Positions 9,101-45,475 are shown, counted from the first letter of the stretch. The stretch is DNA of 45,475 nt from a bacterium (GCA_027069035.1 JALXFI010000331.1:1-45475); one strand, 5' to 3'. The notes: generated by a model not told the origin, from the sequence alone. Numbers and translations: made by a program.

Positions 9101-9121
9101 TTAATGGTATCTTAACTCCGC

Positions 9122-12783: not shown

Positions 12784-12799
12784 CTGATATACTCTAAAC

Positions 12800-16377: not shown

Positions 16378-16378
16378 A

Positions 16379-17731
16379 TCATATCTTCTTTTCAAGCCAC
16401 TTATCTATCAGAAGTTCTGCTACTTTTATATCTGCATCGTTTCTAACCTCGATAGAAGCTACAGGGCTACTTACTTCATAGATACCAATATTTTGACCAA
16501 ATAAGTTGCCCACACGAATAAACTCAGGATGGGTTGCACAACATACTCCCCTTAACTCTAAATAGGTAGGGTCTTTAATTATTCGCGGTGTTAAACCCTC
16601 GTCTAGAAGCTTGATCTTCCCCTTACATTCCTTCCATATTGACTTATTTTCACTTTTCACTGCCACAATAGTATCAAAACCATTTTTAACTAATTGACTA
16701 ATCATATTGTCTATTATGTCATGTGGACGGAATGGGAATGTTATCTCAAGGGTGACAAGTAGGTCAGGAAATATTTTTAAGGATTCCATTTTTTCAACGG
16801 TGTGTTGAAATACACGTTCGATATCAATATAGTCTTCAGAGTATATGGGGTCTCGTAAAAACGGCACTTCGGCACCCAAATTCTCTGCTAATTTAGCAGT
16901 TTTTATGTTATCAGTAGAAACTATAACCCTTTTAACATACTTAGACCCCCTGGCAACTTCTATAGTATAGTCTAAAAGTGGTCTGTCTTTCAGATATGGA
17001 ACCTCTCCCTTTACAGGAATAACTGCTATAATATTCAAATCATTTATATCAACATGGATATTATTCTTGATATCCGGCATCAGATCTTCCAGTATCTTGA
17101 CCACATTAACACATCTACTTGCCTCTCCATTTTGATGTATGCCGTGATAATGGAAGACCCTAGCTTCTGGTTCATATACTATTTTATATTTTTTACGCAG
17201 CATTTTTTCAGCCCATACCCTATCTTCGATATTCGTTATAGTCTCATCAAAAGGAGTTTCCTCCCATAAACTCCTCCTTATCATGCTGTTCGCATTGTGG
17301 AAAAAGCTATCTTTTCTTTGTACTCTTCTGTCAAGACCGAAGATTATAGAAAGATCACGCTTGTCAGAGTCTGAAGTAAAAGCGAGAGGTTCTTGTCGTC
17401 CATAAACCCCTGCTACCTCTTCATCCTGAAAATTTCTAAGAAGGCTCGACAACCATTTTTCATTGACAGGTATACAATGACCCGAAAGGCATACTATGTA
17501 ATCTCCTTTTGCCTCTCTTATACCCATGTTGAGAGCAAGACCAGGTCTATAATCCCTACATTTCACAATTTTCACTATATCAAATTGCTTAGCCTTCTCA
17601 ATCGTCTTATCAGTACTTTCATTATCCACCAGGATAACCTCAAAGTCCCGGTACTCCTGATTGAATACACTCTTCAGGCACATAGTTATCCATCTCTCTT
17701 CATTTTTAGTTCTGATAACAATAGAAACCAT
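16379..17731 (-). CDS. Fusion protein B: N-terminal GT2-like domain (DxD replaced by LSGHC) plus C-terminal CTP_transf_3 cytidylyltransferase-like domain
   Basis: 450 aa. N-terminus VSIVIRTKNEE, ILVDNESTDKT, YIVCLSGHCIPVN. C-terminal half IIAVIPVKGEVPYLKDRPLLDYTIEVA, RVIVSTD, GAEVPFLRDP. Confidence 0.7.
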   Translation of the reverse strand: MVSIVIRTKNEERWITMCLKSVFNQEYRDFEVILVDNESTDKTIEKAKQFDIVKIVKCRDYRPGLALNMGIREAKGDYIVCLSGHCIPVNEKWLSSLLRNFQDEEVAGVYGRQEPLAFTSDSDKRDLSIIFGLDRRVQRKDSFFHNANSMIRRSLWEETPFDETITNIEDRVWAEKMLRKKYKIVYEPEARVFHYHGIHQNGEASRCVNVVKILEDLMPDIKNNIHVDINDLNIIAVIPVKGEVPYLKDRPLLDYTIEVARGSKYVKRVIVSTDNIKTAKLAENLGAEVPFLRDPIYSEDYIDIERVFQHTVEKMESLKIFPDLLVTLEITFPFRPHDIIDNMISQLVKNGFDTIVAVKSENKSIWKECKGKIKLLDEGLTPRIIKDPTYLELRGVCCATHPEFIRVGNLFGQNIGIYEVSSPVASIEVRNDADIKVAELLIDKWLEKKI

Positions 17732-20145: not shown

Positions 20146-20180
20146 CTCATAAATCTCTTAATGAAATTACTATTATAAGC

Positions 20181-22466: not shown

Positions 22467-22566
22467 TTTTAATCCTCCCATTATCGATTGCTCGAGTAAT
22501 ACAACTATTACTAAGCATCAGTCCCTCACTAATCAAAGTAACTCAATGGAGTCACCTATATGGCAC

Positions 22567-23421: not shown

Positions 23422-23534
23422 TCGATTCCTCCTCATCTATTTATTATACACAAAGGAGTTGCAACGTATGATTTCCAAGGACAATTTTGCTGCCCCTGCT
23501 TATTTCTTGGTCTTTGTAGAACTCTCAATATTCC

Positions 23535-24596: not shown

Positions 24597-24598
24597 TA

Positions 24599-25609
24599 CT
24601 ATTCCAAAAGGGCAGATGAGATTAACGTATACTTTGGAATATCCCTCTTTAACTTTTTACCAAGAAAATCATTTATTAATTCAAGTTGACTTTCAGGGGT
24701 AGAAGGAGTAAGAAATTGGAGGTCATTTATTGTAAGTATATCCCCCTTTGACAAAGCCCTTCTTGAGTAAATTCCACGCCTTTTCCTAAATCTCTGACTT
24801 ACTTCGGATGTAGAGGGGACCTTAACCCCATCTCCGATAGCTTTTTCATAATTACGGACAAAAGAAACTAACCTTTTTAGCTCATCTGGTGAAGCTGAAC
24901 AGGCATGGTCTGGACCGGTCAGACTCTTATCCAGTGTAAAATGTTTTTCTATCACTTTTGCACCCATACAAACTGCTGCAAAAGCAATCTCTATACCAAC
25001 TGTATGATCAGAAAAACCATACGGATAGTTAAAGGTGGTAGCAAGAAGAGGTATAGCAGAAAGGTTACACTCTTCAATTGTGGTAGGATAACAGGAGACA
25101 CAATGTAAAATAATGATCTGTTTGTTTCCTTCCTCTTCAATCCATCTTACCGCAGTAGCAACCTCATTAAGGTAGCTCATACCGGTCGACAATATTATAG
25201 GTCTACCAAGTCTTGCCGCACTTTTAATAAGTTCTTTATAATTAAGATCCATTGAAGCAATTTTTACCGCTGGAGAGTTAATATTTTTAAGGAACTGAAT
25301 ATCTTCAAGAGATTCAGGTGTAGAAAATATTACACCATCTCTTTTTCTTGTATATTCGAATAAAAAAGCGTAATCTTCATAACTCAATTCACACATCTTA
25401 GCTGTTTTAAAACCAGGGTTGTCAGGATGTATAAAGTTTTCTGTTTTATAAGTCTGAATTTTCACCGCATTGGCTCCACACTCAAGTGCTGCATCTATAG
25501 TTTCACAGGCCAGTTTAACATCGCCATTATGATTGATGCCTATCTCAGCTATTATGTAAGCAAGCGATTCATCGCCTATTCTTTTGCCAGATATATCAAC
25601 ACATTCCAT
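24599..25609 (-). CDS. NeuB-family ulosonic acid synthase, paralogue 1 (NeuB/PseI/LegI class; specificity unknown)
   Basis: 336 aa. IIAEIGINHNGD, ILHCVSCYPT, FSDHTVG, VIEKHFTLDKS. C-terminal SAF-like RRGIYSRRALSKGDILTINDL. Confidence 0.9.
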   Translation of the reverse strand: MECVDISGKRIGDESLAYIIAEIGINHNGDVKLACETIDAALECGANAVKIQTYKTENFIHPDNPGFKTAKMCELSYEDYAFLFEYTRKRDGVIFSTPESLEDIQFLKNINSPAVKIASMDLNYKELIKSAARLGRPIILSTGMSYLNEVATAVRWIEEEGNKQIIILHCVSCYPTTIEECNLSAIPLLATTFNYPYGFSDHTVGIEIAFAAVCMGAKVIEKHFTLDKSLTGPDHACSASPDELKRLVSFVRNYEKAIGDGVKVPSTSEVSQRFRKRRGIYSRRALSKGDILTINDLQFLTPSTPESQLELINDFLGKKLKRDIPKYTLISSALLE

Positions 25610-31442: not shown

Positions 31443-32210
31443 TTATACCTTTAAGAAAAGCCTGTCATAAGCATCTATCACGTTTTTAAGGTTCAACTGC
31501 TTTGAGTTCTCTCTCAGGAAGTTAACAATCTTAACAATCCTTTTATAATCCTCAGGCGTATCCATCGTAATTCTAACATCAGGTCGATTCTGCCAGTCTT
31601 TAGCATGTAGAGTTACGACATTAAAGTTATCTATATTCTCATGTATATAATCTACAACATGTTCGAAATGATTAGACTTATATGCCTTTTGATGAGATAT
31701 TTTTAGTGCTTTCAAGGTAACAATCTCTTCTTGAGCCCCAACTGGGAGATTTTTGATATATGTATAGTCTGCCTTTAGTGTCAAATGCTCTGCCAACATC
31801 CGTGCTGTTGAATTCATATCTGTTAAAGGGTCATCAGCTGTTGCTCTAACGATATCAGTTACACCAAAGTTTTCTGCACATTCAATATACCTCTTAAGCA
31901 CATTATCACTACTACCTGTTATATATTGCATCTTATAATCATCCAAAATAAGTCTTACAAGTTCTGCTTCTCTCTCTTCAGAAAGAGCCACATAAACCCT
32001 CTCTGTATCAAAATAATGTAAAAATCTCTTTACCAGAAAAACGATAGCAGGCATTCCAAATATTGGAGCTAATATCTTCGCATGAAGTCTTGAAGACCTT
32101 ATCCTTGCCTGGATAATAATTCCCCAACTTTTAGAGCTGGTAATTATATCTCTCTCTTTCTGCAAATCTTTACTCTTTTGTAGTGTTTCGACAAATAAAT
32201 TGTCTTTCAT
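31443..32210 (-). CDS. SpsF-like cytidylyltransferase (CTP_transf_3)
   Basis: 255 aa. IIIQARIRSSRLHAKILAPIFGMP, SDNVLKRY, IVRATADDPLTD. Confidence 0.75.
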   Translation of the reverse strand: MKDNLFVETLQKSKDLQKERDIITSSKSWGIIIQARIRSSRLHAKILAPIFGMPAIVFLVKRFLHYFDTERVYVALSEEREAELVRLILDDYKMQYITGSSDNVLKRYIECAENFGVTDIVRATADDPLTDMNSTARMLAEHLTLKADYTYIKNLPVGAQEEIVTLKALKISHQKAYKSNHFEHVVDYIHENIDNFNVVTLHAKDWQNRPDVRITMDTPEDYKRIVKIVNFLRENSKQLNLKNVIDAYDRLFLKV

Positions 32211-32216
32211 AGCTAC

Positions 32217-33980
32217 TCAATAATACACTATATCATGGATTGTCTTATAGAAATCGAAGTTTTCTTCCATATTAATTAGTTCCCGAAATTTCTCAAAAGG
32301 ATAACTTCTTTTATTGTTCTCAATGTCATTAATCCACTCAATTATCTCTTCAGCAGTTTTCACACACATGTCAGGAAAATCTCTATAATAGAAATATTGT
32401 AAAGATGGATCAACATCAAAGACAAAAGTTGGGAGTTTAAACTGTAAAGCTTCAGCTGCAAGAGATGAACCCGCGGTAATAGCATAGCTAACTTTTAACA
32501 TCAATTCATATGGACTACCAGTATAAACTTCTATATTAGATGGTTTATCCTTTAATGTTTCTAATTCATTGTAGAACTGTTGAACCCTTTTTGTAGGGCC
32601 GAGCTTTGGCTTAATATATAAAGTCCTGTCACTAAAAAAAGAGGCAACTTTAAATAGTTCCTTATAAATATATTCCCATTTTTTATTCTGAGGACTCTGG
32701 AAAAATACTATATCTTTCGGACGATTTTTTATAGATGATTTGAGTTGTTGTAAAAACTTCAGTCCATGTAAACTACCCACTGGGATTACCTTCATATTCT
32801 TACTCCAACAATGTCCTATTTTTTTATATACGTGAGAACCAAAAACAAAGAATATGTCAAAATCGATATGTCGCCAGATAGAAGTTACACCGGGAACAGG
32901 CAAACCATGATGCATTCCTATTGATTTGACATTCTTCTTTCTTAAGAGTGAGGTCCTCACAATATGCTCGGGGGCATATTCATCCCTTCCCCAGAATGCT
33001 TTTATCTCATATTTACCTAAGAAAGCGCATATTCTTGCTTTTCTATATGGGAGTAAAATTATCTCTTCGAATAACTGACTCTGGACATCCGAGAATCTAA
33101 AATAAAGTGTATTTATATCCTTAAATAGTTCAATTAACAGTTTGATAAATTGCATTATTGTTACTGCGCCATCACTACGCGAGGTATAATGTACTCCATT
33201 TAATTTATTTGTTATATCATTCAATAGCTTCTTGGGTATACTGTGGCGAAATAAGATCAGTAGATCAGTTTTACTTTTTACAGAATACAACGCTATATCT
33301 GGATTGGAATGATTAGAAGAAGATATAAAAGAAATCGGTTCTATATGAAAATCATACACAAGAACAAACCGTTTCTTCTTAGTTTTAAACCTCAGCTTTA
33401 AGATCAAATATGAACAAATTCCTATAAAGACTAATATGGAGTTAAGAAAATTAGAAATCTTATATAATAATGGAGTATAGGAAGCGAGTTTATTATCCAT
33501 TTTTTTATCAGGGAAGCACAGGTTAAATAATGCGATATCTTCTTCTGTTGTCCCAAGAAGAGTATATTTAGGGTTAGAGGTATTTAATTTGTCAAGAATA
33601 TATTTAATCTTAACCAGTTGTATCAATTTTCTTTTTATCTCCCTGATATTTATTTTTTCAATAGCATAAGAATATTCTATATCTTCGTATATTCTCTCTT
33701 TTTTTATTACATCATATGCTTTCTGAAGCAGAAGTTCTATTTCATTATACTCCTGATATCCTGGTGCAACCTCTCCAAACCTCAATCTATCAGAAAAGAG
33801 TGTATCAATATGTTGCACCTTGTTTAATTCTACTAATTTTCTAATCAAAAATGAGAGGAGATATCTGTTGACAAAAATGAAAGGTTCAATTGCAACGTAA
33901 AAAACCCTTCTTTTGAGGATAAATATATTCCACAACAATAATATAAATGTAATTTCGTTTACAATAATTAAGAGGGTCAT
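32217..33980 (-). CDS. Large uncharacterised membrane-anchored protein with a GT-B-like C-terminal half (candidate transferase/polymerase)
   Basis: About 587 aa from the ATG at 33980 (the ORF-track start at 33998 is a TTG). Hydrophobic MTLLIIVNEITFILLLWNIFIL and SILVFIGICSYLILKL. C-terminal VIPVGSLHG, DIVFFQSP and YAITAGSSLAAEALQFKLPTFVFDVDP. Confidence 0.4.
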   Translation of the reverse strand: MTLLIIVNEITFILLLWNIFILKRRVFYVAIEPFIFVNRYLLSFLIRKLVELNKVQHIDTLFSDRLRFGEVAPGYQEYNEIELLLQKAYDVIKKERIYEDIEYSYAIEKINIREIKRKLIQLVKIKYILDKLNTSNPKYTLLGTTEEDIALFNLCFPDKKMDNKLASYTPLLYKISNFLNSILVFIGICSYLILKLRFKTKKKRFVLVYDFHIEPISFISSSNHSNPDIALYSVKSKTDLLILFRHSIPKKLLNDITNKLNGVHYTSRSDGAVTIMQFIKLLIELFKDINTLYFRFSDVQSQLFEEIILLPYRKARICAFLGKYEIKAFWGRDEYAPEHIVRTSLLRKKNVKSIGMHHGLPVPGVTSIWRHIDFDIFFVFGSHVYKKIGHCWSKNMKVIPVGSLHGLKFLQQLKSSIKNRPKDIVFFQSPQNKKWEYIYKELFKVASFFSDRTLYIKPKLGPTKRVQQFYNELETLKDKPSNIEVYTGSPYELMLKVSYAITAGSSLAAEALQFKLPTFVFDVDPSLQYFYYRDFPDMCVKTAEEIIEWINDIENNKRSYPFEKFRELINMEENFDFYKTIHDIVYY

Positions 33981-34008
33981 TGAGGAAAGTTGAAACAAAG
34001 GCTAAAAA

Positions 34009-35520: not shown

Positions 35521-37269
35521 TCACATTATCCGTTTTAATTCTTCTGCCCACAATCTATACCAGTCTCTTCTGGTATAGGCATATCGCTCGCAAAACTCGT
35601 TACGTGCCTTCTGAACTTCTGGACTCAACCACCATTTTAATGGGTTATCGAATATCCTTTTAACTTTTTCTGCAGCACTTACAGGATCTTTATGAAGTAT
35701 CTCGACCCCTCTCAATAAATCAAAGTATTTCTCTGCCTCTGGTCTCATAAGAAATACACTATGGTCCCAATAGAGTACACAGGGGACATTTATAGCCAAT
35801 GCCTCAAGAAAAGAGGTGTAAGGATGATCTATAACTACAAGATATGCCCTTTGCATTAGTTCCGTCAACCTGCCTTTAGTGTTAAACTTTACCTCTGGAA
35901 CTATATTCCTTATATAATCTTCTTCAATCTCTCTCCATTCTTTATCTACATATAGTCTGTACAAAACCCTATTCTTAATTTTTTGTGGGAGTGCATTCAA
36001 AAACTGCTTCTTACTCTCGAAATACATTGCGATATCATCGGATCGTAGTGTAGTTACAAACTTAAAAACATATCTACGAACAACGTTACCAACATATACA
36101 ATATATTGGGAGCGCTTCGAGGGAGAGTATTTATCCCTGAGCCTTGATAGATGAGGACTGGGGAGTGGCTTAATATTCTCTCTACAACTCCAGCCCCATG
36201 TATAAAAAAAATCTTTCTCCTGAGCCATCTTCTCCTCTTGGTGAGCTAAAGCAGTTCCATAAATACCCCCATGTTGAAACTCTACTATCTTAGCTCCTTT
36301 TATCAATCTCTTTGCAGCAAAAAACTTAAAAGGCTCAAAAAGACGCCACCCTGTAGCAGAACCTATTATTTTCACAGCATCAAGCTTTCCTTTCTTATTC
36401 ACTAACTTATCATACATACCATAGTTTTCTACATATGATACCGGTATAGCGCCAGGGATGAGTTGCAACAATATTGATTTGAATATATCAGAAGAATTGT
36501 TATCAATGCTTAATCTTTTTCTCATATCATAAGAAAGAGCGACCTTACTACAATTTATTCCAGGGGTGTCAAAATTTATGTAAGAGAAATTTCTTATACC
36601 CAATCTTAAGATAAGAGAGAACCAGTCCCTTATAGCTAAATGGTTGTACATATAGCTTAATACAATATGGCCATTGAAAATCCATTCTAATGGTTTTAAT
36701 AAAGTGAGAAGTATTTTTCTCTTGCTACTATACCTCATGCCATAGGGGCTGGCCTTGTATTCATATTGTACCTCTTTTATTCTATCTGGGCATAGCTCAT
36801 AACTAATTAGGCTAAATAACTTAAGATTAAAATAATCTTCTTTTACAATTCGATTAATAAAATCATTTGTATCCAGCGTTATCAAATTACACTGCTCTCT
36901 TGGAAGCACATGGGTATAAAAGTCGAATAACATTAGGGCATTTTTCATCCTCCTAAATCTCTCATAAAGAACCTCTGTAAAAATTAAAAGCCAATCTCCA
37001 ACAAGAATCTTCCAATACTTCAAAGGATAAGATACGTTATGTATATAATTTAACCTTTCGGCTAATTGGGTCATTAACTCGTTGTATATATTATAACAGT
37101 AGTCGGCATCTTCCTTTATCTCAATAGCAGACTTCCATGGAGAAGCTGCTATAGGATAGTAAGGGTTATTCACCATGTTGTTCTTTAAACACCATGTGCC
37201 CAGCAGGATTACCTCCTTCTCTAAATCCCATATGTCTGATATCCTGGTTGTAGCAAGATAATATCTCAT
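35521..37269 (-). CDS. Large soluble putative transferase; resembles, from memory, the Leptospira LIC12162-type family found beside neuB/neuA genes
   Basis: About 582 aa from the ATG at 37269 (the ORF-track start is a TTG). IVEFQHGGIYG and YLVVIDHPYTSFLEALAINVPCVLYWD. The family call is unverified. Confidence 0.4.
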   Translation of the reverse strand: MRYYLATTRISDIWDLEKEVILLGTWCLKNNMVNNPYYPIAASPWKSAIEIKEDADYCYNIYNELMTQLAERLNYIHNVSYPLKYWKILVGDWLLIFTEVLYERFRRMKNALMLFDFYTHVLPREQCNLITLDTNDFINRIVKEDYFNLKLFSLISYELCPDRIKEVQYEYKASPYGMRYSSKRKILLTLLKPLEWIFNGHIVLSYMYNHLAIRDWFSLILRLGIRNFSYINFDTPGINCSKVALSYDMRKRLSIDNNSSDIFKSILLQLIPGAIPVSYVENYGMYDKLVNKKGKLDAVKIIGSATGWRLFEPFKFFAAKRLIKGAKIVEFQHGGIYGTALAHQEEKMAQEKDFFYTWGWSCRENIKPLPSPHLSRLRDKYSPSKRSQYIVYVGNVVRRYVFKFVTTLRSDDIAMYFESKKQFLNALPQKIKNRVLYRLYVDKEWREIEEDYIRNIVPEVKFNTKGRLTELMQRAYLVVIDHPYTSFLEALAINVPCVLYWDHSVFLMRPEAEKYFDLLRGVEILHKDPVSAAEKVKRIFDNPLKWWLSPEVQKARNEFCERYAYTRRDWYRLWAEELKRIM

Positions 37270-37271
37270 GA

Positions 37272-38336
37272 TCAAATCAGGTCATCAAATGTGATTTCAC
37301 TACCTATTTCCATATCTCTTATAATACACCTGCCTATAACCTCATCAATCTTATCGGCATTGACTCCCTTCTGTGATATAAGAGGCGAAATCATCTCTTC
37401 TTTCAAAATAGTACCTGCTTTTAAGGCACGGTTAACGTGCAAAGAACGCCTGAGCTGTCTCTTTGATTCCATTTCACATGGCTGGCATGTCTTCTTCACC
37501 TCTCCCAACATCTTTTCAAGTCGCCTTATCTCTTTTACAAGATTTTGCATATCCTTAGGGTCAGCAGATAAGGAATGGTCACCAAAACCCTGTGACTTAT
37601 CGAGTGTAAAATGCTTTTCTACAATACATGCCCCTAGCGCAACGGCACCTATACATGCAAGGTACCCTACAGTATGATCTGAGTATCCGACAGGCACATC
37701 ATCATATCTATTCATCAGAAAGGATATAGAGCGGAGATTTGTCTCTTCATCAGGGGTTGGATAAGATGAGACACAGTGGAGAAGGACTATCTTATCCATT
37801 GGAAATACTCCTATAGCCCTATCTATCTCTTCTAACTCTGCTTGACCTGTAGACAATATCACCGGCTTGTTCTTCGAAGCCACATGGCGAAGTAGCAAGA
37901 TGTTTATGAGATCACCTGAAGCAATTTTATATGCAGGCACAAGGGGTTCTAAGAAGTCCACCGAATCTTCATCGAAGGGTGTACATAAAAAATCAAGTCC
38001 ACATTCTTTTGAGAGCTTATACAGTTCCATCATCTGGTCATGATTGAGTTCAAGGGCTTTAAACCGCTCAAACTGGGTTTTATATCCAAGAGATTTGGCC
38101 CGTTTAAAAACAGGCACGGTTCTGGAAATAAACTTTTCAGCCTTATATAACTGAAACTTTACAGCATCAACACCAGTCTTTGCTGCCTCAAAGACCATTT
38201 GTTTAGCAAGAGAGAGGTCTCCATTGTGGTTGGTACCTATCTCTGCTATAATGTATATACTTTTATTAAACCGCTCAAAAAATTTATTTACACTTAAAGA
38301 GCTGTAGTTATCTTGCCTTGGTTCTGCTTTCCTCAT
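37272..38336 (-). CDS. NeuB-family ulosonic acid synthase, paralogue 2
   Basis: 354 aa. IIAEIGTNHNGD, LLHCVSSYPT, YSDHTVG, VEKHFTLDKS. SAF-like tail RRSLHVNRALKAGTIL. AGGTG SD 5 nt upstream. Confidence 0.9.
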   Translation of the reverse strand: MRKAEPRQDNYSSLSVNKFFERFNKSIYIIAEIGTNHNGDLSLAKQMVFEAAKTGVDAVKFQLYKAEKFISRTVPVFKRAKSLGYKTQFERFKALELNHDQMMELYKLSKECGLDFLCTPFDEDSVDFLEPLVPAYKIASGDLINILLLRHVASKNKPVILSTGQAELEEIDRAIGVFPMDKIVLLHCVSSYPTPDEETNLRSISFLMNRYDDVPVGYSDHTVGYLACIGAVALGACIVEKHFTLDKSQGFGDHSLSADPKDMQNLVKEIRRLEKMLGEVKKTCQPCEMESKRQLRRSLHVNRALKAGTILKEEMISPLISQKGVNADKIDEVIGRCIIRDMEIGSEITFDDLI

Positions 38337-38395
38337 AATCGCACCTATAATACTACTTTTCTACAACCTCCATGTTAAGCTCTCAGCTAAGTTAG

Positions 38396-39118
38396 TCATG
38401 CCTTCATCCCTCTTAAAATAACCAATCCTTCAAAAACTTTCATATCAAATGGGGTATCTATATCAAGGGACTCCTCCTGAGACACCACTATGCCTTTAAC
38501 ATTATCTCCTAAAGCAAAATTTTTACCATTCCAGTAATTAAGTAGAGACCTTTTTCTACCAAAGATAGCACCTGTCATACCATATGCCTCGGGTCTGTCC
38601 TGTTTCTGCTGGTAGCTTTCGGTAGTATATTCTGTAAGAGGAGAAATTCTGCTGGTTTCATTATCATATTTATAAGCCCTGAAGGGATGGAAGTGAATTA
38701 TCTTTGTTATAGTTACAACAGAATCACAATGAGTCTTCTCCATCAATCTTACTGCCAGTTTTATTGTTTCAGGTCTTATTAATGGAGAGGTGGGTTGTAT
38801 CGAAAAAACAAGGTCGTAATAACTATTCTGATTCTCAAGATATTCTACAGCATGTTTTACAACATAAACGAGTGAAACTTCATCTCTTGCAAATTCTTGA
38901 GGTCTTATAAAGGGTATCTCAATGGCAGGGTATCTCGAACTTACCACTTCGGCTATCTCTTCAGAGTCAGTAGATAGAACTACTCTATTAAAAGCCTCTG
39001 ATTCAAGGATGGTTTCTATCACATATCCTATCAATGGTTTTCCCCCTACTGTCACTATATTCTTTTTAGGAATTGCTTTAGAACCTCCCCTTGCAGGTAT
39101 GATGCATAATGTACCCAT
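38396..39118 (-). CDS. Acylneuraminate (CMP-ulosonic acid) cytidylyltransferase, NeuA-like
   Basis: 240 aa. LCIIPARGGSKAIPKKNIVTVGGKPLIGYVIE, IPFIRPQEFARDE, QPTSPL. Confidence 0.85.
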   Translation of the reverse strand: MGTLCIIPARGGSKAIPKKNIVTVGGKPLIGYVIETILESEAFNRVVLSTDSEEIAEVVSSRYPAIEIPFIRPQEFARDEVSLVYVVKHAVEYLENQNSYYDLVFSIQPTSPLIRPETIKLAVRLMEKTHCDSVVTITKIIHFHPFRAYKYDNETSRISPLTEYTTESYQQKQDRPEAYGMTGAIFGRKRSLLNYWNGKNFALGDNVKGIVVSQEESLDIDTPFDMKVFEGLVILRGMKA

Positions 39119-39128
39119 ACTGTTTAAG

Positions 39129-39893
39129 TTATTGAACTATACGCAATTTGGTATTGATAGAAGGATCTAAGACTTTCTCCTTTATCCTTCCTTCATGATC
39201 TATATGGGGATTGTTATCAAAAAACTCTATAATATCCAATAATGTAAATTCCTTGTTTTTTTTGTATAGATAATTGTATAACTTTTCAACCACTTCAAAA
39301 TCATCCTGAGTGTCAATCGTAACCGTATAATTGGGTCTATAATATTTATCTGAAGGACACCTGTATTTTGCATGTCTAAATACATGTGGGTGATCTTTAA
39401 AGTACAAGGTCATATATTCAGAGAAATTTGGGTCCACAGATAATTCCAGGCACTTCTTCATTGCCTTAAAGGAAATGATCTCTGGTCTTGTCCCCCGAGG
39501 TGTATCTTCTGTAAATGTGTAGTCAGCTCTCTCCTTTATATGGAGCTTCACCATCTCATCTATGATGAACGGATCGGTGAGGGGATTGTCTCCTGTGATA
39601 CGTACAATATGGTCAGCCAGATATTTTTCAGCTGCCTCTATAAAACGGAGCAAGACATTTTCTGGATGACCTCTAAATACCTTAAACCCGTATTCATTGG
39701 CAAAGACCTCTATAGGATCATCTCCAGGGAGGGTAGAGGTACAGATAACAGTATCAACAGGTACCTTTGCCATCCTCACTCTTTGCATGAGATGCCAAAG
39801 GATAGATTTTCCCTCTATGGTTTTTAGTGCCTTACCAGGCAATCTCTTTGACTTCATCCTTACAGCAACAAGATTAACAACTATCGGCTTCAT
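39129..39893 (-). CDS. SpsF-like cytidylyltransferase (CTP_transf_3)
   Basis: VAVRMKSKRLPGKALKTIEGKSIL, FRGHPENVLLRF, IVRITGDNPLTDP. I prefer the ATG at 39893 over the TTG at 39905. Confidence 0.8.
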   Translation of the reverse strand: MKPIVVNLVAVRMKSKRLPGKALKTIEGKSILWHLMQRVRMAKVPVDTVICTSTLPGDDPIEVFANEYGFKVFRGHPENVLLRFIEAAEKYLADHIVRITGDNPLTDPFIIDEMVKLHIKERADYTFTEDTPRGTRPEIISFKAMKKCLELSVDPNFSEYMTLYFKDHPHVFRHAKYRCPSDKYYRPNYTVTIDTQDDFEVVEKLYNYLYKKNKEFTLLDIIEFFDNNPHIDHEGRIKEKVLDPSINTKLRIVQ

Positions 39894-40908
39894 ATAGATC
39901 TTCAAGACGTATTGCCTTATTGGCAGGTATGAAGTGCTTTGTTTTCTTTAGGACTCTCTTATATCTATCAGGAGGTAATCCCTCCTCTTCTGTCCTCTTA
40001 AAAGAGAGGTCTTCTAAGGTAATGAGGTGACCTTTAGGTATATCTCTTGAAGCCACTATCTTCTTTTTCATCAGTCGTCTATAAGTAACTTCAGCTTTGC
40101 TCTCACCTGGTACTATCTCATTTATACCGTACGCCTTTTCTATCTGTCTCACCATTCCTACCAATCGTGCAAACTCATCTGGATTTAATGCAGAATAGTA
40201 ATCACGCCCCTTCTTTGACCTATCAAGAGTAATATGTTTTTCTATTACACTCACACCATAACCAATAGCAACGAGGGGAAGTGAGAGAGCAAGTTCTGAC
40301 TCAGCATCTATATGATCAGCAAAACCTAAATGATAAGGATATCTTTCCTTCAATACATTAAGTAGTCTGAAATTGGTATCATCAATACGTGTTGGAAAAC
40401 CTTGAAAACCATGCATTAAAATGATGTTCTTATTGCCAATTTTTTCTATATTTTGGATTGCATAGCTTATCTCTGTCTCTGTTGCTGCACCTACTGAGAG
40501 AATAAGAGGCTTCATAGTAGCTGCTACATATTTGAGTAAGAATGGATTAGTCAAGTCAGATGTAGGGATTTTATAAGCTGATATATCCAGTTTTTCAGCC
40601 AGTTTGAAACTCCTTTCATCAAAAACCTCTGAAACAACAAACAAACCTATTCTTCTAGAATATTCGATAATTTCATACCACTGTTCATCAGAGAATTGAA
40701 GCTGCTTAAAACTTGGATACTTATGATGATTAGGGACTATAAGATTATCTGTATTTAATATTTGATACTTAATAGCATCTGCCTCTGTCATCGAGACAGC
40801 ATCAGCTATCCTCTTAGCAAGTTCAACATCGCCCTCATGACTGGAAGCCGTTTCTGCTATAACGAATATAGATTCAAAAGGTTTAATTAAGGCTCCATTG
40901 AGTTCCAT
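39874..40908 (-). CDS. NeuB/SpsE-family ulosonic acid synthase, paralogue 3 (divergent N-terminal motif)
   Basis: FVIAETASSHEGD where AEIGxNHNGD is expected. FADHIDA, VIEKHITLDRS, and SAF-like tail KKKIVASRDIPKGHLITL. I prefer the ATG at 40908 (MELNGALIK...), one nt after the upstream TGA, over 40965. Confidence 0.85.
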   Translation of the reverse strand: MELNGALIKPFESIFVIAETASSHEGDVELAKRIADAVSMTEADAIKYQILNTDNLIVPNHHKYPSFKQLQFSDEQWYEIIEYSRRIGLFVVSEVFDERSFKLAEKLDISAYKIPTSDLTNPFLLKYVAATMKPLILSVGAATETEISYAIQNIEKIGNKNIILMHGFQGFPTRIDDTNFRLLNVLKERYPYHLGFADHIDAESELALSLPLVAIGYGVSVIEKHITLDRSKKGRDYYSALNPDEFARLVGMVRQIEKAYGINEIVPGESKAEVTYRRLMKKKIVASRDIPKGHLITLEDLSFKRTEEEGLPPDRYKRVLKKTKHFIPANKAIRLEDLYEADSC

Positions 40909-40909
40909 A

Positions 40910-41911
40910 TCACTTCCATCGGTATGTTGTTGGTCTGAAACAGGTTCGACACGCAGGTATGTCATCCAATTCTATCTTTCTTATCTTATCTCTTAATCTA
41001 TTCAATGTGGCACCATGCCATATCTCTTCAATCGACTGTTTATAGTAATCTCCCACCACTGTCTTTCTGTTCCAGTCACCACAACACATAAGAACCTTAC
41101 CGTCCCGATTGATATTCAATCTTTGCCATGGCTGTTCACAAAACCTTCTTCCAATCGGTCTCTTGCCGTCTCTAAATGGATATCCATCCTCGACATAGCG
41201 ATCTTGATTTTCGATAATCGCTATATTATCAACTCCTCTGCCCTTCCAGAAGTTGATGAACTGCTCAACCTCTCTCTCTGTTTCATAATAATTTACCATT
41301 TGGACACGAATAAAGGGTCTCTTTACGCCCTTCTGTTTCTTTACCTTTATGAAAGTTTCTATATTTCTAATTAGCTTATCATAATCTCCCCCAACCCTTA
41401 TCTTCTCATAAGACTCCTTAGTTGCTCCATCTACTGAGAATATGATTCGATCAAGCCCTGCATCTACCAAGTCCTCAACCTTCTTTCTGTTTGCAGGCAG
41501 TCCATTCGTATTAAACTGGACCTCAAGTACCCCTTTATTCTTTGCATAACGGACAAATTCAACCAGGTTTTTATGAAGCATGGGCTCGCCCCTAAAATTA
41601 AACTTTATCGAATACACACCAAGTTCGGCACATTCGTCTATCGCTTTATATGCAAGGGTTGGTTCTATAAAACCTGCGTTGGGCACCCCTTTTATTCCAT
41701 GGACACACATAATGCATCTCAGATTACACGCATCACTTACCTCTATATCTACATGAAGTGGAACATTACTTAATATTCTGAATTTGGGATAATAATTCCA
41801 TTTCAAACGATAAAGCCAGTAGCGAAAATCTCTACCCCTTTTCACAATATTATTCACATAACCCTTTATCCCTGTCCTATCTACTATATTTTTCTTATAT
41901 TTGTAATGCAT
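40910..41911 (-). CDS. Radical SAM enzyme with a Cys-poor SPASM/twitch-like C-terminal domain (paralogue 2)
   Basis: 333 aa. CNLRCIMC. C-terminal C(EQPW)...CC(GDW)...CRTC. Collinear with the 21471-22466 product, including the N-terminal W-x-Y-P-x-F...PLHVD extension. Confidence 0.85.
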   Translation of the reverse strand: MHYKYKKNIVDRTGIKGYVNNIVKRGRDFRYWLYRLKWNYYPKFRILSNVPLHVDIEVSDACNLRCIMCVHGIKGVPNAGFIEPTLAYKAIDECAELGVYSIKFNFRGEPMLHKNLVEFVRYAKNKGVLEVQFNTNGLPANRKKVEDLVDAGLDRIIFSVDGATKESYEKIRVGGDYDKLIRNIETFIKVKKQKGVKRPFIRVQMVNYYETEREVEQFINFWKGRGVDNIAIIENQDRYVEDGYPFRDGKRPIGRRFCEQPWQRLNINRDGKVLMCCGDWNRKTVVGDYYKQSIEEIWHGATLNRLRDKIRKIELDDIPACRTCFRPTTYRWK

Positions 41912-41915
41912 TAAC

Positions 41916-43952
41916 CTATACCGTGTTGATTATACAAGGTTGACGAAGTAACTTTTTTGTATTGACCTTCGCGAGTATCCTTGAAATGCCAATCAAATCA
42001 GTGCCATATATCTTCTTAAATCTTTTTATCGTGTCAAGTTGCTCTTCAGTATGTCTGAATACAATAAGCCTCTCTTTATAACAGCCTATTCCTTCTCCCA
42101 AAAGATAGAATCCCCTTTGCTTAATGATTGAGTCGAAATCAAATTTTGATATCATCTTAATAGCTACGGTATTGTCTTCAAATAATCCTTTGGCTTGTGA
42201 AACACAATAAGTAACCACCTCTTTTATACAATCTCTTTGCAAATTGTTAAGTTTACCTATATGCTGGGATAGAATTTTCAATGCGCTTCTTAATACTACC
42301 TCACCCATCTCTCCTATATATTGCAGCATACCCAAAGATTTATACTTAAATAATAGATTACTTCCATACTCACCACTGATATACTTATCAATGTTCTCTT
42401 TAAGGTATCTATATAAAGCCTCTTTATTTTCCCATAACTCACCTCTGGTCTCGTTCAAAAAGTCATCAAAAAGTCTATTCAGCCTCTCTGGTACCGGGTT
42501 ATTATAAATATCCTTAAGCAACTTAAATATAGGGATAGACTCACTCTTGAAAAGTTGATGAAGCGGATAAAAAAGACCGTCGTTATAAAACAGAGCGACT
42601 ATTAAATGCATCTTCCTACATTGAAGATACTCGTCAAAGCTCATACTATCTGTTGATACAACCACTTCTTCAATCTCAGCGGAAGTCAATCTATCACCAT
42701 TATACTCGAAAAAGCCAAAGCATCTTGGAATCACTCTGTATCTGGTTATCAATCCAAATCTCTTACGATACTCAGTTGACCACATCTCAGAACCAGGTAA
42801 CAACATTAATGTATAAAGGTTTATATAATTGAATCCCATGTCTATTAACTCCGCAATACTTTTAAAATGGGATTCCTTAGTCTCTCCAGGTAATGCAAGA
42901 ATCAATTCACTGTAACTATTAGCCCCTGATGCTGTAGCTTCTATGGCAAGATGAAGCAGTTGTTTTTTGGAGATATTGCTGCGTTTTATGTTAGAGAGTA
43001 CAACTTTATCCATGCTTTGCACAGAACCAGCAACCCGTAGAGCCCCATCGATTAGCTGACCACCTTTTATTATCCTATCTTTATTGGACTTTCCAGTAGA
43101 CACATTAACATAAGACGGCCATCCGAACTCTTTCCGACACTGGCTAATGAGTTCAAACGTAAAGTAGTCCTCTCTGAACATACCAAAATTGGAATCAGCT
43201 ATATGGAGGTCAGCCCGCCCTCCACAATCTACTACTGGTTTTATACGTCGTGCTATATAAAATAACTCTTCACGGATATAATTCAAAGGCTTTCTATTAA
43301 TTTTATTATAATACCTAGCACCTTCACAGCAATATGTGCATCTGAATGGACAACCACGAACTGTCTGAATGATTGGAAGAAATCTTCCGTCAAAAAATTC
43401 ATCTAACACTCCCTGTGTATATGGAGAGGGTATATCTCCAAGATCTTCAATACGTGGGGCGGAATGATTCAAGACCACCTTATTTTTACTTTTTGAAAAA
43501 TAATGTATAGAAGGAACATCCACATCCACCTGAGGTCTAATATCAGTTGATAGCAATTCTTTTATCAATTGACTAAAGGGCAACTCCCCCTCCCCCACCA
43601 CATAATAATCTATAGCAGCATGTTTCCTTAAAAACTCCTCCCTGCTATGCTTGTCCTGAGGGTAATTAGGTCCACCAAATACAATAGTAGTTTCTGGATG
43701 CCATTTACGTATCTCTTTGGCAAAGATATAACTAAGATTGAAATTCCATGCATAATTGGAGAAACCAATAACTTCCGGCACTTCTATAGATAAAGCCTCT
43801 ACTAACTGTTTAGGTGTCTTAAAAATACGCAAGGCAACAGAATCACCCAAAACTTTTGAAGTATAGGTAGCAATACAACCAATAGCATAAGGCATAATGT
43901 CAGAGGCAATTGTCTGTTGTGTATATGTTAGATCAACCAAGAATATTAACAT
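41916..43952 (-). CDS. B12-binding-domain radical SAM enzyme (class B, methyltransferase-like) with a long C-terminal extension
   Basis: 678 aa. N-terminal cobalamin-binding-like Rossmann region (VIGFSNYAWNFN...IVFGGPNYP...YYVVGEGE). VRGCPFRCTYC cluster motif. About 250-aa uncharacterised tail. Confidence 0.8.
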   Translation of the reverse strand: MLIFLVDLTYTQQTIASDIMPYAIGCIATYTSKVLGDSVALRIFKTPKQLVEALSIEVPEVIGFSNYAWNFNLSYIFAKEIRKWHPETTIVFGGPNYPQDKHSREEFLRKHAAIDYYVVGEGELPFSQLIKELLSTDIRPQVDVDVPSIHYFSKSKNKVVLNHSAPRIEDLGDIPSPYTQGVLDEFFDGRFLPIIQTVRGCPFRCTYCCEGARYYNKINRKPLNYIREELFYIARRIKPVVDCGGRADLHIADSNFGMFREDYFTFELISQCRKEFGWPSYVNVSTGKSNKDRIIKGGQLIDGALRVAGSVQSMDKVVLSNIKRSNISKKQLLHLAIEATASGANSYSELILALPGETKESHFKSIAELIDMGFNYINLYTLMLLPGSEMWSTEYRKRFGLITRYRVIPRCFGFFEYNGDRLTSAEIEEVVVSTDSMSFDEYLQCRKMHLIVALFYNDGLFYPLHQLFKSESIPIFKLLKDIYNNPVPERLNRLFDDFLNETRGELWENKEALYRYLKENIDKYISGEYGSNLLFKYKSLGMLQYIGEMGEVVLRSALKILSQHIGKLNNLQRDCIKEVVTYCVSQAKGLFEDNTVAIKMISKFDFDSIIKQRGFYLLGEGIGCYKERLIVFRHTEEQLDTIKRFKKIYGTDLIGISRILAKVNTKKLLRQPCIINTV

Positions 43953-45328
43953 TACGACAATTCCTCCAAGATCTTTTCAGCAACCCAGTAACTGAATTCA
44001 TCTTCTATCTTCCAAGAATCCTTTGGAGACATCTCTACATGACCGACCTTGCTTCCAAGAAAGCTGTTTTTATACAGATTCTTTGTTTTAATTACATAGA
44101 TAGAACCATTTTCTTTGTAAATGGTATTTTTATCTTCTCTCAAAAGGCGTTTTTGATATCCCACGGGAGCTAATCCATACTTGTCAGGCTTCCAGTGGAA
44201 TGTGAGGTCAACTACAACCCCTATAACAGAGTCTGTATTATATAAAAGGATTGTATCGATCGCTTCTGTTATATGTTTTTCTTTTCTAAAAGGAGTAAAA
44301 TACTGTAACTGGACGATCAGGTCAGGAACATCTTCTTCTCTCTCTTTAAAGACCTCAATCATGTGCCGTAATACATTATCAAAGGGAACACTGGTTCTGG
44401 CGAGTTCCACAGGCCTTAAAAACGGGACCTCGGCTCCAAACTTCTTAGATACCTCTGCTATCTCCTGATCTTCGGTGGAGACTATCACACGATCAATCAA
44501 TTCAGTTTTTAATGCCTCTTCAATTGTGTAGGCAATAAGAGGCTTCCCATTTAAAGGCTTGAGGGCAAGTTTCTCTCTATTCCTGAACAAACCCATCGCA
44601 GGAATAACAGCGATTATATTTTTCCCTTCATAGTACTGCTTTTTATCAACAAACTTCTTCTTGACATATCTTCTCGCCTCCATCCGAGCTTCAAAGTTGT
44701 TTGACATGCTTACATCATGCTTTCTGTAATACATAAGTGGCAGATTAACATTATAGACATTGAACTTATCAATAAATCTAATCCAAAAATCATAATCTTC
44801 TTGATATCTTAACTCTTCGCTATACCCACCTATAGCATCATAACATTCTCTTCTGAACATAGCGCCTGCTGCAAGGGGATTACGGTCCAGAAGTTTGACC
44901 TCGTCATTCACCTTCTGTAAACGATAGGAATCTATTATCTCTCCGTATTTGTTAATACGATAATAATCTGGATAAACCATATGGATGTTAGGATCGCTGT
45001 CGAGTATATACGACTCTATTAGTAGGATATTCTCATCAAAGTAATCATCCGCATCCAGTCTGATAATATATCTTCCTTTTGAAGCCCTTATACCTGTATT
45101 GCATGCCTTAGCAAGCCCCACACCTTCAGTTGTAATAACCTCTATTTTCTCGGGGTACTTGTTCTTGTAGTGATTGAGTATTACAGGAGTACTGTCTGTA
45201 CTGCCATCATCCACTACTATCATCTCCCAGTCAGTAAATCTCTGTTTTATAACACTATCAAGACACTGTGGTAGATATTTCCCATAGTTGTGGGCTGTAA
45301 CTATAACGCTAACCTTTACTTCTGACAT
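43952..45328 (-). CDS. Fusion protein A: N-terminal GT2 domain (intact DxD) plus C-terminal CTP_transf_3 cytidylyltransferase-like domain
   Basis: VSVIVTAHNYGKYLPQCLDSV, VVDDGSTD, IRLDADDYF; then IIAVIPAMGLFRNREKLALKPLNGKPLIAYTIEEA, RVIVSTED, GAEVPFLRP. Start set at the ATG at 45328 (MSEVKV), which has AAGGTGGG 5 nt upstream; the ORF-track start at 45358 is a TTG. Confidence 0.75.
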   Translation of the reverse strand: MSEVKVSVIVTAHNYGKYLPQCLDSVIKQRFTDWEMIVVDDGSTDSTPVILNHYKNKYPEKIEVITTEGVGLAKACNTGIRASKGRYIIRLDADDYFDENILLIESYILDSDPNIHMVYPDYYRINKYGEIIDSYRLQKVNDEVKLLDRNPLAAGAMFRRECYDAIGGYSEELRYQEDYDFWIRFIDKFNVYNVNLPLMYYRKHDVSMSNNFEARMEARRYVKKKFVDKKQYYEGKNIIAVIPAMGLFRNREKLALKPLNGKPLIAYTIEEALKTELIDRVIVSTEDQEIAEVSKKFGAEVPFLRPVELARTSVPFDNVLRHMIEVFKEREEDVPDLIVQLQYFTPFRKEKHITEAIDTILLYNTDSVIGVVVDLTFHWKPDKYGLAPVGYQKRLLREDKNTIYKENGSIYVIKTKNLYKNSFLGSKVGHVEMSPKDSWKIEDEFSYWVAEKILEELS

Positions 45329-45475
45329 CTTTACCCACCTTTTGTAAAAAATACTCAAAGGTCATTTTCAGTCCAGCATACAGGTCCCATTTAGGTTCAA
45401 ACCCCAATATCTGCCTCGCCTTTGAGATATCAGAGAAGTTCCTTCTAACATCGCCAGAGCGAGTATCTCCATAAA
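45309..45475 (-). CDS. Extended SDR NAD-dependent sugar epimerase/dehydratase (GalE/WbpP-like); C-terminal fragment, 5' end outside the window
   Basis: My translation of the minus strand gives YGDTRSGDVRRNFSDISKARQILGFEPKWDLYAGLKMTFEYFLQKVGKDVRSKG-stop. The GD-x-R...DISKA...LG-x-P-K pattern is the typical C-terminus of this family. Its TAG at 45309-45311 overlaps the next gene by 20 nt. Confidence 0.7.
   Translation of the reverse strand, partial: YGDTRSGDVRRNFSDISKARQILGFEPKWDLYAGLKMTFEYFLQKVGKDVRSKG

Follow-up and report, generated by a model that had tools for sequence, protein, structure and literature searches.

A GT2 glycosyltransferase joined to a degenerate cytidylyltransferase domain in ulosonic-acid gene cassettes of bacteria and archaea

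Results

Fusion A encodes a GT2 domain and a cytidylyltransferase-like domain in one protein

The bacterial DNA examined here (GCA_027069035.1, JALXFI010000331.1:1-45475; "the window" refers to this whole stretch of 45,475 nucleotides) consists of a single long glycan operon on the minus strand, with about 42 open reading frames (ORFs) and a GC content of about 36%. Our subject is a gene in this operon, fusion A (43952..45328, minus strand), whose 458-aa product joins a family 2 glycosyltransferase (GT2) to a domain with the fold of a cytidylyltransferase (CT) that, judging by its residues, is no longer catalytic. The gene was delineated from its ORF and sequence, Pfam matches and an AlphaFold2 (AF2) model. 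Its ATG start is preceded by AAGGTGG; a longer form beginning at a TTG at 45358 was rejected because the ATG at 45328 has a ribosome-binding site and homologues begin at the same place.

The N-terminal domain (residues 1-228; 44645..45328, minus) has the GT-A fold, with 6p61 as its Foldseek match, and a Pfam score consistent with membership of the GT2 family (Glycos_transf_2, PF00535, residues 7-100, E 7e-31, 107.8 bits against a cutoff of 23.3). The C-terminal domain (residues 236-458; 43955..44623, minus) has the NeuA/PseF fold according to Foldseek and matches CTP_transf_3 (PF02348) over residues 255-430 (E 2.6e-16, 60.5 bits, cutoff 22.6). This match begins at profile position 17, leaving the P-loop part of the profile unmatched. 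A chance match was ruled out by the E value and by template-modelling (TM) scores of up to 0.90 for the fold. Only GT2-type and CT-type families were found in the Pfam scan of the protein. The AF2 model is one confident chain (pLDDT 87.8, pTM 0.81), and so high a pTM in a two-domain protein suggests that the domains are held in a fixed orientation; no chain in the PDB spans both halves. There is no hydrophobic segment (maximum KD19 of 1.31), which rules out membrane anchoring.

The initial annotation had described an intact GT2 combined with a CTP_transf_3-like domain, and this description is borne out by two Pfam matches above cutoff, by the presence of the DXD motif and by the occurrence of the quoted motifs VVDDGSTD and IRLDADDYF in the protein. 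It had also allowed that the C-terminal domain might not score as CTP_transf_3, which the bit score given above answers, and that the junction might be an assembly or frameshift artefact. We reject the latter since colinear homologues exist in independent assemblies, the junction is without a gap in a 31-sequence alignment of homologues and AF2 returns a single confident chain.

The architecture is widespread and colinear

A protein search with fusion A returned more than 120 full-length colinear proteins of 48-77% identity, all carrying PF00535 and PF02348, the best of them from metagenome-assembled genomes (MAGs) of Nitrospirota, Planctomycetota and Omnitrophota. Scanning genomes at one per species, as the survey of taxonomic distribution proposed in the initial annotation, revealed 49 full-length fusion loci in at least 11 bacterial phyla and six archaeal lineages. 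The bacteria comprise Nitrospirota, Desulfobacterota, Omnitrophota, Elusimicrobiota, Alphaproteobacteria, Latescibacterota, Acidobacteriota, Planctomycetota, Chloroflexota, Verrucomicrobiota and Bacteroidota; the archaea comprise Aenigmatarchaeota, Hadarchaeota, Undinarchaeota, Pacearchaeota, Methanosarcinales and haloarchaea, the last including the cultured Haloarcula regularis and Halosimplex sp. TS25. Such colinear conservation across many phyla argues that the fusion is real and, as had been proposed, functional.

Our literature searches found no paper on the GT2-CTP_transf_3 architecture and nothing relevant on cassettes combining radical S-adenosylmethionine (radical-SAM) and NeuB genes; the Leptospira and Halorubrum papers do not mention the fusion architecture. 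The family is present in databases under generic names and, as far as these searches show, uncharacterised.

The cytidylyltransferase domain has lost its catalytic residues and kept its ligand contacts

Foldseek matched the C-terminal domain to 6ifd, 9t4z, 9ftc and 1eyr (TM 0.82-0.90, 27-30% identity), and it superposes on the CMP-Neu5Ac, CMP-Kdn and CMP-Pse synthetases. Against NCBIfam equivalog models the scores are far lower: 90.8 bits for PseF, below the cutoff of 205.7, and at most 37 bits for the KdsB models, with cutoffs of 155-255.

Residue numbers below are those of the Neisseria meningitidis enzyme (NmCSS), and counts refer to 118 close homologues of fusion A and to 48 genome loci reaching down to 31% identity. 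In the characterised synthetases Arg12, Ser15, Lys16 and Lys21 bind the phosphates of CTP, K21A being inactive; Asn22 contacts the ribose hydroxyls; Gln104 contributes to sugar and metal binding; and Asp209 and Asp211 bind the catalytic Mg2+, with D209A the most damaging mutation (PMC2901514, PMC6580227). Aligned with the N. meningitidis and Vibrio cholerae enzymes, fusion A has Met for Arg12, Phe-Arg for Ser15-Lys16, (Lys)-Leu-Ala for Lys21-Asn22, Gln-Tyr-Phe for Gln104-Pro-Thr106 and Lys-Ile-Glu (K440-I-E442; 44003..44011, minus) for Asp209-Ile-Asp211. The degenerate phosphate-binding loop, P243-K262 (PAMGLFRNREKLALKPLNGK; 44543..44602, minus), aligns with the PAR-GSK..KN loop of NmCSS and VcCMAS. 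The initial annotation had noted this alteration, and its quoted loop, IPAMGLFRNREKLALKPLNGKPLIAY, is present as given, while the canonical form, IIPARGGSKAIPKKNI, is found in the standalone CT encoded at 38396-39118. Neither a GDEP nor a QPTSP motif is present in the aligned C-terminal domain.

These losses extend through the family. The Arg12 position is occupied by Met (50), Arg (38), Val (11), Ile (7) or Lys (7) in the 118 homologues and is variable in the genome loci, where Asn22 is never Asn (48 of 48). At the Asp209 position we found Arg (90), Lys (14), His (12) or Gln (2) and not one acidic residue among the 118, with Asp in two of the 48 loci; the Asp211 position holds Glu (55), Asp (23) or Gln (13) in the homologues and varies among the loci. 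Many further pocket positions differ from clade to clade across the 48 loci.

Two ligand contacts are retained. Arg71, which reads the cytosine (PMC6580227), corresponds to R305 of fusion A (44414..44416, minus) and is Arg in 117 of 118 homologues, in 47 of 48 loci, in all 120 members of the fusion B family and in all 29 of the four-domain proteins described below. Arg165, which pairs with the sugar carboxylate (PMC2901514) and is supplied in trans by the other protomer (PMC6580227), corresponds to R397 in the alignment to 1eyr (44138..44140, minus); the position is Arg in 85 and Lys in 22 homologues (107 of 118) and mostly Arg or Lys in the loci. Tyr179 is conserved as Tyr in 111 of 118, and a Lys one position off the canonical one (K253) is kept in 78 of 118.

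When the C-terminal domain alone was used in an exhaustive profile-free search, 61 clusters were retrieved at E <= 1e-30. The best were fusions and their fragments, and next came standalone proteins of about 235 aa and 36-42% identity that possess all canonical motifs (PARGGSKGIPRKN, QPTSP, D/E-I-D). Since these nearest standalone relatives keep every motif, the degenerate state of the fusion is the derived one. We conclude from these alignments that the domain descends from NeuA/PseF-type cytidylyltransferases and is predicted to be catalytically degenerate across the family. Loss of the triphosphate and metal machinery, retention of the cytosine and carboxylate contacts and a basic residue at the metal site together look like the signature of a binding pseudo-enzyme, not of random decay.

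The GT2 domain is predicted to be active

The DXD motif of fusion A, D92-A-D94-D95 (RLDADD; 45044..45055, minus), is classical, and D92, D94 and D95 are invariant among 31 homologues, as are E177, D178 and D180 (QEDYDFW). The same alignment shows the acceptor-side half of the domain to be conserved as in true transferases. The closest solved relative is 6P61, a glycosyltransferase of Leptospira borgpetersenii (TM 0.92, 35% identity by Foldseek), followed by matches to the chondroitin polymerase K4CP, SpsA (TM 0.72) and WrtF. The nearest relatives, by sequence and by structure, all use nucleoside diphosphate (NDP)-sugars. No sialyltransferase-type GT-A enzyme is among the top matches of the domain, and neither the Pfam scan of fusion A nor the 50 best PDB fold matches include a member of the known sialyl- and ulosonate-transferase families (GT29, 38, 42, 52 and 80, the Kdo transferases GT30, 99 and 107, and Maf). 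The N-terminal half is therefore predicted to be a catalytically competent, classical DXD-type GT2.

The fusion is embedded in NeuB/cytidylyltransferase cassettes

Fusion A overlaps its neighbours on both sides, as the initial annotation had noted. Upstream, by 20 nt, lies the 3' end of a TviC/GalE-like short-chain dehydrogenase/reductase (SDR) gene, which stops (TAG) at 45309 and runs off the window (45309..45475, minus); its orthologue at 9009-10004 of locus L001 scores as an SDR epimerase/dehydratase. Downstream, by 1 nt (TAATG), a gene for a B12-binding radical-SAM enzyme starts at 43952, identified by profile searches as a KedN5-like C-methyltransferase (41916..43952, minus). The 20-nt overlap implies that the operon extends further upstream, so that fusion A, which had been thought to head the module, is simply the first gene complete within the window.

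Five more minus-strand genes follow: a radical-SAM/SPASM enzyme that is a conserved cassette partner (40910..41911, profile search); the 363-aa NeuB paralogue A (39874..40965, profile search), of a type that elsewhere is fused N-terminally to CT(A) plus the fusion; the 258-aa SpsF/KdsB-like CT258, or cytidylyltransferase A, genuine by profiles and alignment (39129..39905); the 240-aa NeuA/PseF-like CT240, or cytidylyltransferase B, genuine and with all canonical motifs (38396..39118); and the 354-aa NeuB paralogue B (37272..38336, profile searches). With two genuine CTs for the two adjacent NeuB genes, the CT domain of fusion A is supernumerary. We also considered whether the degenerate domain supplies residues that a neighbouring CT lacks, but CT240 showed no such complementary loss. 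The ORF of NeuB363 as listed and the radical-SAM/SPASM gene before it share 56 nt. Starting translation at an internal Met (MELNG...) would largely abolish this overlap, so the true start may lie further downstream than annotated.

Across the 49 loci a NeuB homologue lies within 10 kb of the fusion in 42, at a median gap of 268 bp; 38 contain a standalone CT, at a median gap of only 6 bp; and 21 have a radical-SAM/SPASM gene nearby. These counts substantiate the proposed link to ulosonic-acid genes. The recurrent order is radical-SAM/SPASM, NeuB(A), CT(A), fusion, CT(B), NeuB(B). The window holds the same six genes permuted: fusion A comes first, then the B12 radical-SAM gene, and the other five keep the recurrent order. 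CT and fusion genes overlap or abut in the gene calls, and eight loci that seemingly lack a standalone CT instead encode CT(A) and NeuB(A) as one ORF of about 600 aa. A genuine CT therefore always accompanies the fusion, as an adjoining gene or as a fused upstream domain.

NDP-sugar SDR genes lie directly upstream of the fusion and overlap it, so that the two are translationally coupled. In about 12 of the 49 loci a UDP-sulfoquinovose-synthase homologue and then a TviC/GalE-like epimerase lie beside the fusion. One such homologue, in an Aenigmatarchaeota MAG (L004:7644-8816), scores 600.6 bits with NF041015 (cutoff 575), and another is at L001:7864-9012; the corresponding gene of the window probably lies just beyond 45475. 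These genes suggest a sulfonated sugar in the glycans, either as the GT2 donor or as the NeuB substrate.

The position of the SDR genes also bears on the proposal that the GT2 is an NDP-sugar hydrolase that transfers to water and frees an aldose for NeuB, replacing PseG or NeuC. True PseG/NeuC homologues are indeed rare in fusion loci, being seen only in L008 and in the second module of the window, and proteins joining an intact CT to PseG (P0177) or NeuC (P0164) do exist. However, the fusion has no similarity to PseG or NeuC and was never recruited by iterative searches seeded with them, the acceptor-side half of its GT2 is as conserved as in true transferases and a hydrolase would leave no role for the conserved but dead CT pocket. 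Moreover, fusion B, the second fusion of the window, adjoins a PseG-like gene set (with a PseG-like gene beside NeuB336) and its family sits in aldolase/dehydratase loci that need no NDP-sugar hydrolysis. We regard the hydrolase proposal as improbable.

Several other features of the operon deserve mention. The regions 37272-43952 and 21471-25609 together encode three NeuB paralogues, four standalone CTP_transf_3 proteins, two radical-SAM/SPASM enzymes and one KedN5-like B12 radical-SAM C-methyltransferase, and this NeuB/radical-SAM content points to several unusual, possibly C-methylated, ulosonic acids. The SpsF-like CTs (39129-39905 and 31443-32210) match the N-terminal part of the spirochaete spiro-SPASM family TIGR04321, and the radical-SAM/SPASM enzyme (40910-41911) matches its central-to-C-terminal part; TIGR04321 would therefore seem to join CT(A) to a radical-SAM/SPASM enzyme, a further instance of the CT fold linked to an enzyme acting on an activated sugar. 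Beside NeuB354 and a Wzx flippase, the minus-strand gene at 35521-37275 encodes a LIC12162-family transferase (TIGR04331, 401 bits, cutoff 225) that is a candidate for ulosonate transfer. Comparable functions may belong to two large unannotated proteins, encoded at 32217-33998 and 14791-16395, the second of which has weak similarity to TIGR04326 and is related to proteins of about 618 aa in loci L069 and L070. The large unknown proteins of the fusion loci are mostly unrelatable to each other, with weak TIGR04396, TIGR04326 and BFO_1060 signals. Finally, a complete CDP-6-deoxyhexose branch is encoded at 11369-14769 (minus), comprising a glucose-1-phosphate cytidylyltransferase (366 bits), a CDP-glucose 4,6-dehydratase (455 bits), a small epimerase-like protein and an SDR reductase.

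Fusion B shows the same kind of degeneracy

Fusion B (16379..17731, minus; 450 aa) also consists of a GT2 and a CTP_transf_3 domain (Pfam, E 8e-10 for the latter). The motifs reported as common to both fusions, GAEVPFLRP and RVIVSTED in A, align with GAEVPFLRD and RVIVSTDN in B. The two proteins are 29% identical over 223 aa of the C-terminal domain (E 2e-19) and 33% identical over the first 88 aa, in the GT2. The fusion B family comprises at least 120 clusters of 60-72% identity, including anammox and marine bacteria. Its C-terminal domain has an 8-residue loop deletion and, in all 120, the Arg71 and Arg165 equivalents, Glu at the position of Asp209 and Arg at that of Asp211. In the GT2 domain the DXD is replaced by CLSGHCIP (Ser83-Gly84-His85; 17477-17485), with SGH conserved in 120 of 120, and other blocks (VDNESTD, YGRQEP, FFHNANS, NIEDRVW, HYHGIHQ) are conserved. 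From these motifs, the fusion B GT2 may be a metal-independent GT-A enzyme or one with a His ligand.

Fusion B is always preceded by a standalone CT gene. In the window this CT (17740-18474, minus) has an intact phosphate loop, PARKGSTRLKIKN, and NPTSP, but Ile-Ile-Lys in place of Asp-x-Asp. Ile-Ile-Lys is conserved in five orthologues, among them L069:9258-10004, L070:9263-10000, L024:19122-19895 and L038:16715-17449, so that this protein appears to be a second non-canonical type of cytidylyltransferase. Beside CT244 and fusion B, the minus-strand region 18502-21386 encodes a GFO/IDH/MocA oxidoreductase and a galactarate/altronate-type dehydratase, a pair that suggests synthesis of a 2-keto-3-deoxy sugar acid by dehydration, followed by CMP activation. 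In the anammox fusion B loci (L069, L070) their place is taken by an HpcH/HpaI aldolase, an HMGL-like protein and a HAD phosphatase. Since fusion B loci make their keto-deoxy acid differently, the common denominator of the two families is a CMP-ulosonate and not NeuB as such.

The initial annotation had called the two fusions distant paralogues. Their shared architecture and kind of degeneracy agree with this, but a common origin is unproven: neighbour-joining recovers an A clade (85 of 100 bootstraps) and a B clade (98 of 100) and groups the two in 33 of 100. The C-terminal domain of A resembles intact standalone CTs (41% identity, 159 bits) more than it does that of B (29%, 76 bits); likewise, a standalone GT2 encoded in the window is more similar to the GT2 domain of A than that of B is. 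On these comparisons one ancient fusion and two independent ones are both possible; had the fusion arisen twice, the case for function would be stronger still.

The pattern of loss and retention common to A and B could also be read as re-purposing of the CT fold into a second glycosyltransferase head that uses CMP-ulosonate, giving a two-headed synthase, likened to the chondroitin and heparosan synthases, that builds a hexose-ulosonate unit. A conserved basic residue replaces the metal site (at position 209 in A and 211 in B) and could stabilise the CMP leaving group, the loop that binds the β- and γ-phosphates is lost while the cytosine and carboxylate contacts remain, and the model aligns domain for domain with heparosan synthase 2 over about 485 columns, although in a different domain arrangement. 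Yet neither a catalytic base nor an acceptor site could be identified, many pocket positions vary between clades and the CT fold has no precedent for such chemistry, which makes this possibility highly improbable. If it were true, it would be bolder still than transfer of a CMP-disaccharide, discussed below.

NeuB, cytidylyltransferase and fusion also occur in single polypeptides

In a Methanosarcinales MAG (L036) the fusion is extended to a 702-aa CT(A)-GT2-pseudoCT protein. When this protein was used as a query, 29 of the best 119 clusters proved to consist of proteins ("megaproteins") about 1045 aa long and arranged NeuB(A)-CT(A)-GT2-pseudoCT, and Pfam confirmed the four-domain order for P0498, P0489 and P0407. 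Further four-domain proteins are P0409-P0411 and P0416 and those of loci L071:9001-12144 and L072:9001-12129, and the lineages include Cloacimonadota and Omnitrophota. Megaprotein genes have a radical-SAM/SPASM gene in front, a second NeuB behind and no second standalone CT nearby. The proteins themselves have a conserved Glu at the Thr106 position and a conserved His at the Tyr179 position.

These last residues are relevant to the idea of a bifunctional enzyme, in which the C-terminal domain is an active CT with a non-canonical site and one protein both activates and transfers the sugar. The domain has the full CT fold and a Pfam score above cutoff, and Arg12 or Asp209 is kept in some clades; KdsB-type enzymes have a metal ligand at the Thr106-equivalent position (PMC2901514), so that the Glu and His of the megaproteins could form another metal site; and megaprotein loci contain two NeuB genes and one canonical CT. 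Against this, the ribose-binding Asn, the first metal Asp, QPTSP and usually Arg12 are gone from fusion A and its 118 relatives, loss of Lys21 or Asp209 cripples the model enzymes (PMC2901514, PMC6580227), the PseF and KdsB equivalog scores are far under their cutoffs and the window has two intact CTs for two adjacent NeuB genes. We judge a bifunctional enzyme very improbable.

Discussion

The initial annotation had offered a glycosyltransferase carrying its own CMP-sugar recognition or synthesis domain, coupling activation to transfer. The synthesis half of this proposal finds no support: the Lys21/Asn22 region, Asp209 and Gln104/Thr106, whose need for cytidylyl transfer is established by experiment (PMC2901514, PMC6580227), are missing family-wide, and an intact CT is invariably encoded as well, as a protein of its own or as an additional fused domain. 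The recognition half is plausible given the retained equivalents of Arg71 and Arg165. Coupling of activation to the next step is evident at the level of gene clusters and megaproteins but not within the C-terminal domain of the fusion. We consider it likely that the protein is a soluble, active GT2 transferase with a dead CT domain that binds a (CMP-)ulosonate, and that it acts after synthesis and activation and does not itself activate.

On this likely reading, NeuB(A) makes the ulosonic acid, CT(A) activates it and the fusion carries out the following step, activation being the work of separate CTs encoded nearby, CT258 and the downstream CT240. In the mechanism we favour, the dead CT domain would capture the CMP-ulosonate, with basic K440 sitting where Mg2+ would otherwise face the phosphate, and would present the ulosonate as acceptor to the GT2 active site, where a conventional NDP-sugar would be added in a metal-dependent inverting reaction. 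That the ulosonate is the acceptor held by the pseudo-CT and an ordinary NDP-sugar the donor is a tentative preference, held at somewhat less than even odds. We lean this way because the DXD of fusion A is classical and its close relatives all use NDP-sugars, because NDP-sugar SDR genes are directly upstream and translationally coupled, because other GT-B-like candidate ulosonate transferases exist (the LIC12162-family protein at 35521-37275 and TIGR04396/BFO_1060-like proteins) and because two substrates on two domains would be the most economical use of a conserved second pocket. Taken as a whole, the core claim together with this acceptor mechanism is the best explanation we have, at a probability of roughly 45%.

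Several observations weigh against this explanation. We know of no precedent for the glycosylation of a nucleotide-activated ulosonate, and a glycan-terminal ulosonate as acceptor would leave the invariant cytosine-binding Arg unexplained. The fusion B GT2, without a DXD, fits a CMP-sugar donor better than an NDP-sugar donor. Some clades (L035, L036 and the megaproteins) keep Arg12 or Asp209, and there are the megaprotein loci with two NeuB genes but one genuine CT, so that, going by these residues and gene counts, some clades may have residual or alternative catalysis in the C-terminal domain.

The most serious alternative is that the fusion is itself the ulosonate transferase, its GT2 using as donor the labile CMP-ulosonate made by the neighbouring CT, and the dead CT serving as a hand-over or docking module that channels it, either by binding CMP-ulosonate or by pairing with the genuine CT. 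The assembly line NeuB-CT-GT2-pseudoCT in one polypeptide (29 clusters), the NeuB-CT fusions of eight loci and the overlap of CT and fusion genes would all suit channelling. In CTs the active site is built at the dimer interface, where Arg165 comes from the partner protomer (PMC6580227), and the fusion retains this Arg. Archaeal cassettes hold two CMP-acids and only two transferase candidates, of which the fusion is one, and absence of the DXD from fusion B is as in metal-independent CMP-sugar GT-A enzymes. On the other side stand the classical, invariant DXD of fusion A and its closeness to UDP/GDP-sugar GT2 enzymes. To our knowledge no GT2 enzyme uses a CMP-sugar. A donor in the GT2 pocket would also leave the conserved pocket of the second domain without a clear role, and other candidate ulosonate transferases are present in the same loci. 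We therefore regard a ulosonate transferase as possible but doubtful. An extension of the acceptor mechanism, in which the CMP-bound ulosonate is glycosylated on the dead CT to give a CMP-activated disaccharide that is transferred en bloc, is rather unlikely; it would amount to a nucleotide-activated oligosaccharide donor, a mode of assembly undescribed for sialic-acid-like sugars.

The fusions form a large family of two sub-families in at least 17 phylum-level lineages, four-domain NeuB-CT-GT2-pseudoCT proteins included. Public pipelines label its members "glycosyltransferase" or "CMP-NeuAc synthetase/GT2"; the second label, which implies a CMP-sugar synthetase, is probably mistaken and would inflate estimates of activation capacity in metagenomes. 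Sialic-acid-like sugars are found on the cell surface in many bacteria and archaea, yet the enzymes that attach or extend them are poorly known beyond a few pathogens. If the dead domain does read CMP-ulosonates, the family would clearly illustrate how a pseudo-enzyme can be recruited to confer specificity and would provide a handle on the missing glycosyltransferases of nonulosonic-acid glycans. The question is directly testable since cultured, genetically tractable haloarchaea carry homologues. In Haloarcula regularis SYNS111 (L028; NZ_CP119794: 1131300-1152703) the fusion lies beside a CT, a NeuB, a sugar N-formyltransferase, a Wzy_C-like protein and another GT2, a gene set that recalls the glycan of Halorubrum sp. 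PV6 with its N-formyl-legionaminic acid.

Among characterised proteins, the NeuA/PseF synthetases (1EYR of N. meningitidis, 6IFD of V. cholerae, the CMP-Pse enzyme 9FTC of A. caviae and the CMP-Kdn enzyme 9T4Z) share the fold of the C-terminal domain. Fusion A keeps from them the VSTxD strand, the GAEV..R(P) cytosine-binding Arg, the dimerisation hairpin with its carboxylate-binding Arg and ENG..Y; it has lost the PAR-GSK..KN loop, QPTSP and the Asp-x-Asp metal site, and has a GT2 fused in front. Joining of the CT fold to an enzyme of the same pathway is also seen in CT-NeuC (P0164), CT-PseG (P0177), CT-CT (P0127) and CT-NeuB (L036 16839-18740) proteins, all of which keep every CT catalytic motif, whereas the CT of fusion A is degenerate and its partner is a GT2. 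The NeuA of Escherichia coli K1, to go by its citation in PMC6137143, combines a CT with an esterase (Liu et al. 2004).

With the classical GT2 enzymes (6P61, the A2 domain of K4CP, SpsA, EpsE/TuaG) fusion A shares the GT-A fold, DDGSTD, the DXD and the ED catalytic-base region, but none of these has a CT-fold domain. The bifunctional glycosaminoglycan synthases PmHS2 and K4CP resemble it in carrying two tandem nucleotide-sugar-transferase-fold domains per chain. Their domain arrangement is different (root-mean-square deviation of about 19.7 Å over some 485 Foldseek columns), and the second domain of fusion A, unlike theirs, is CT-derived and lacks a DXD; polymerase activity is without support. 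A parallel in principle is provided by the GT27 polypeptide GalNAc-transferases, which combine a GT-A catalytic domain with a lectin domain that binds the acceptor glycan. There, as we propose for fusion A, a non-catalytic sugar-binding domain steers a GT-A domain; the module of fusion A differs in being a dead nucleotidyltransferase and not a ricin-type lectin, in being cytoplasmic and prokaryotic, and in having a ligand that probably includes the nucleotide.

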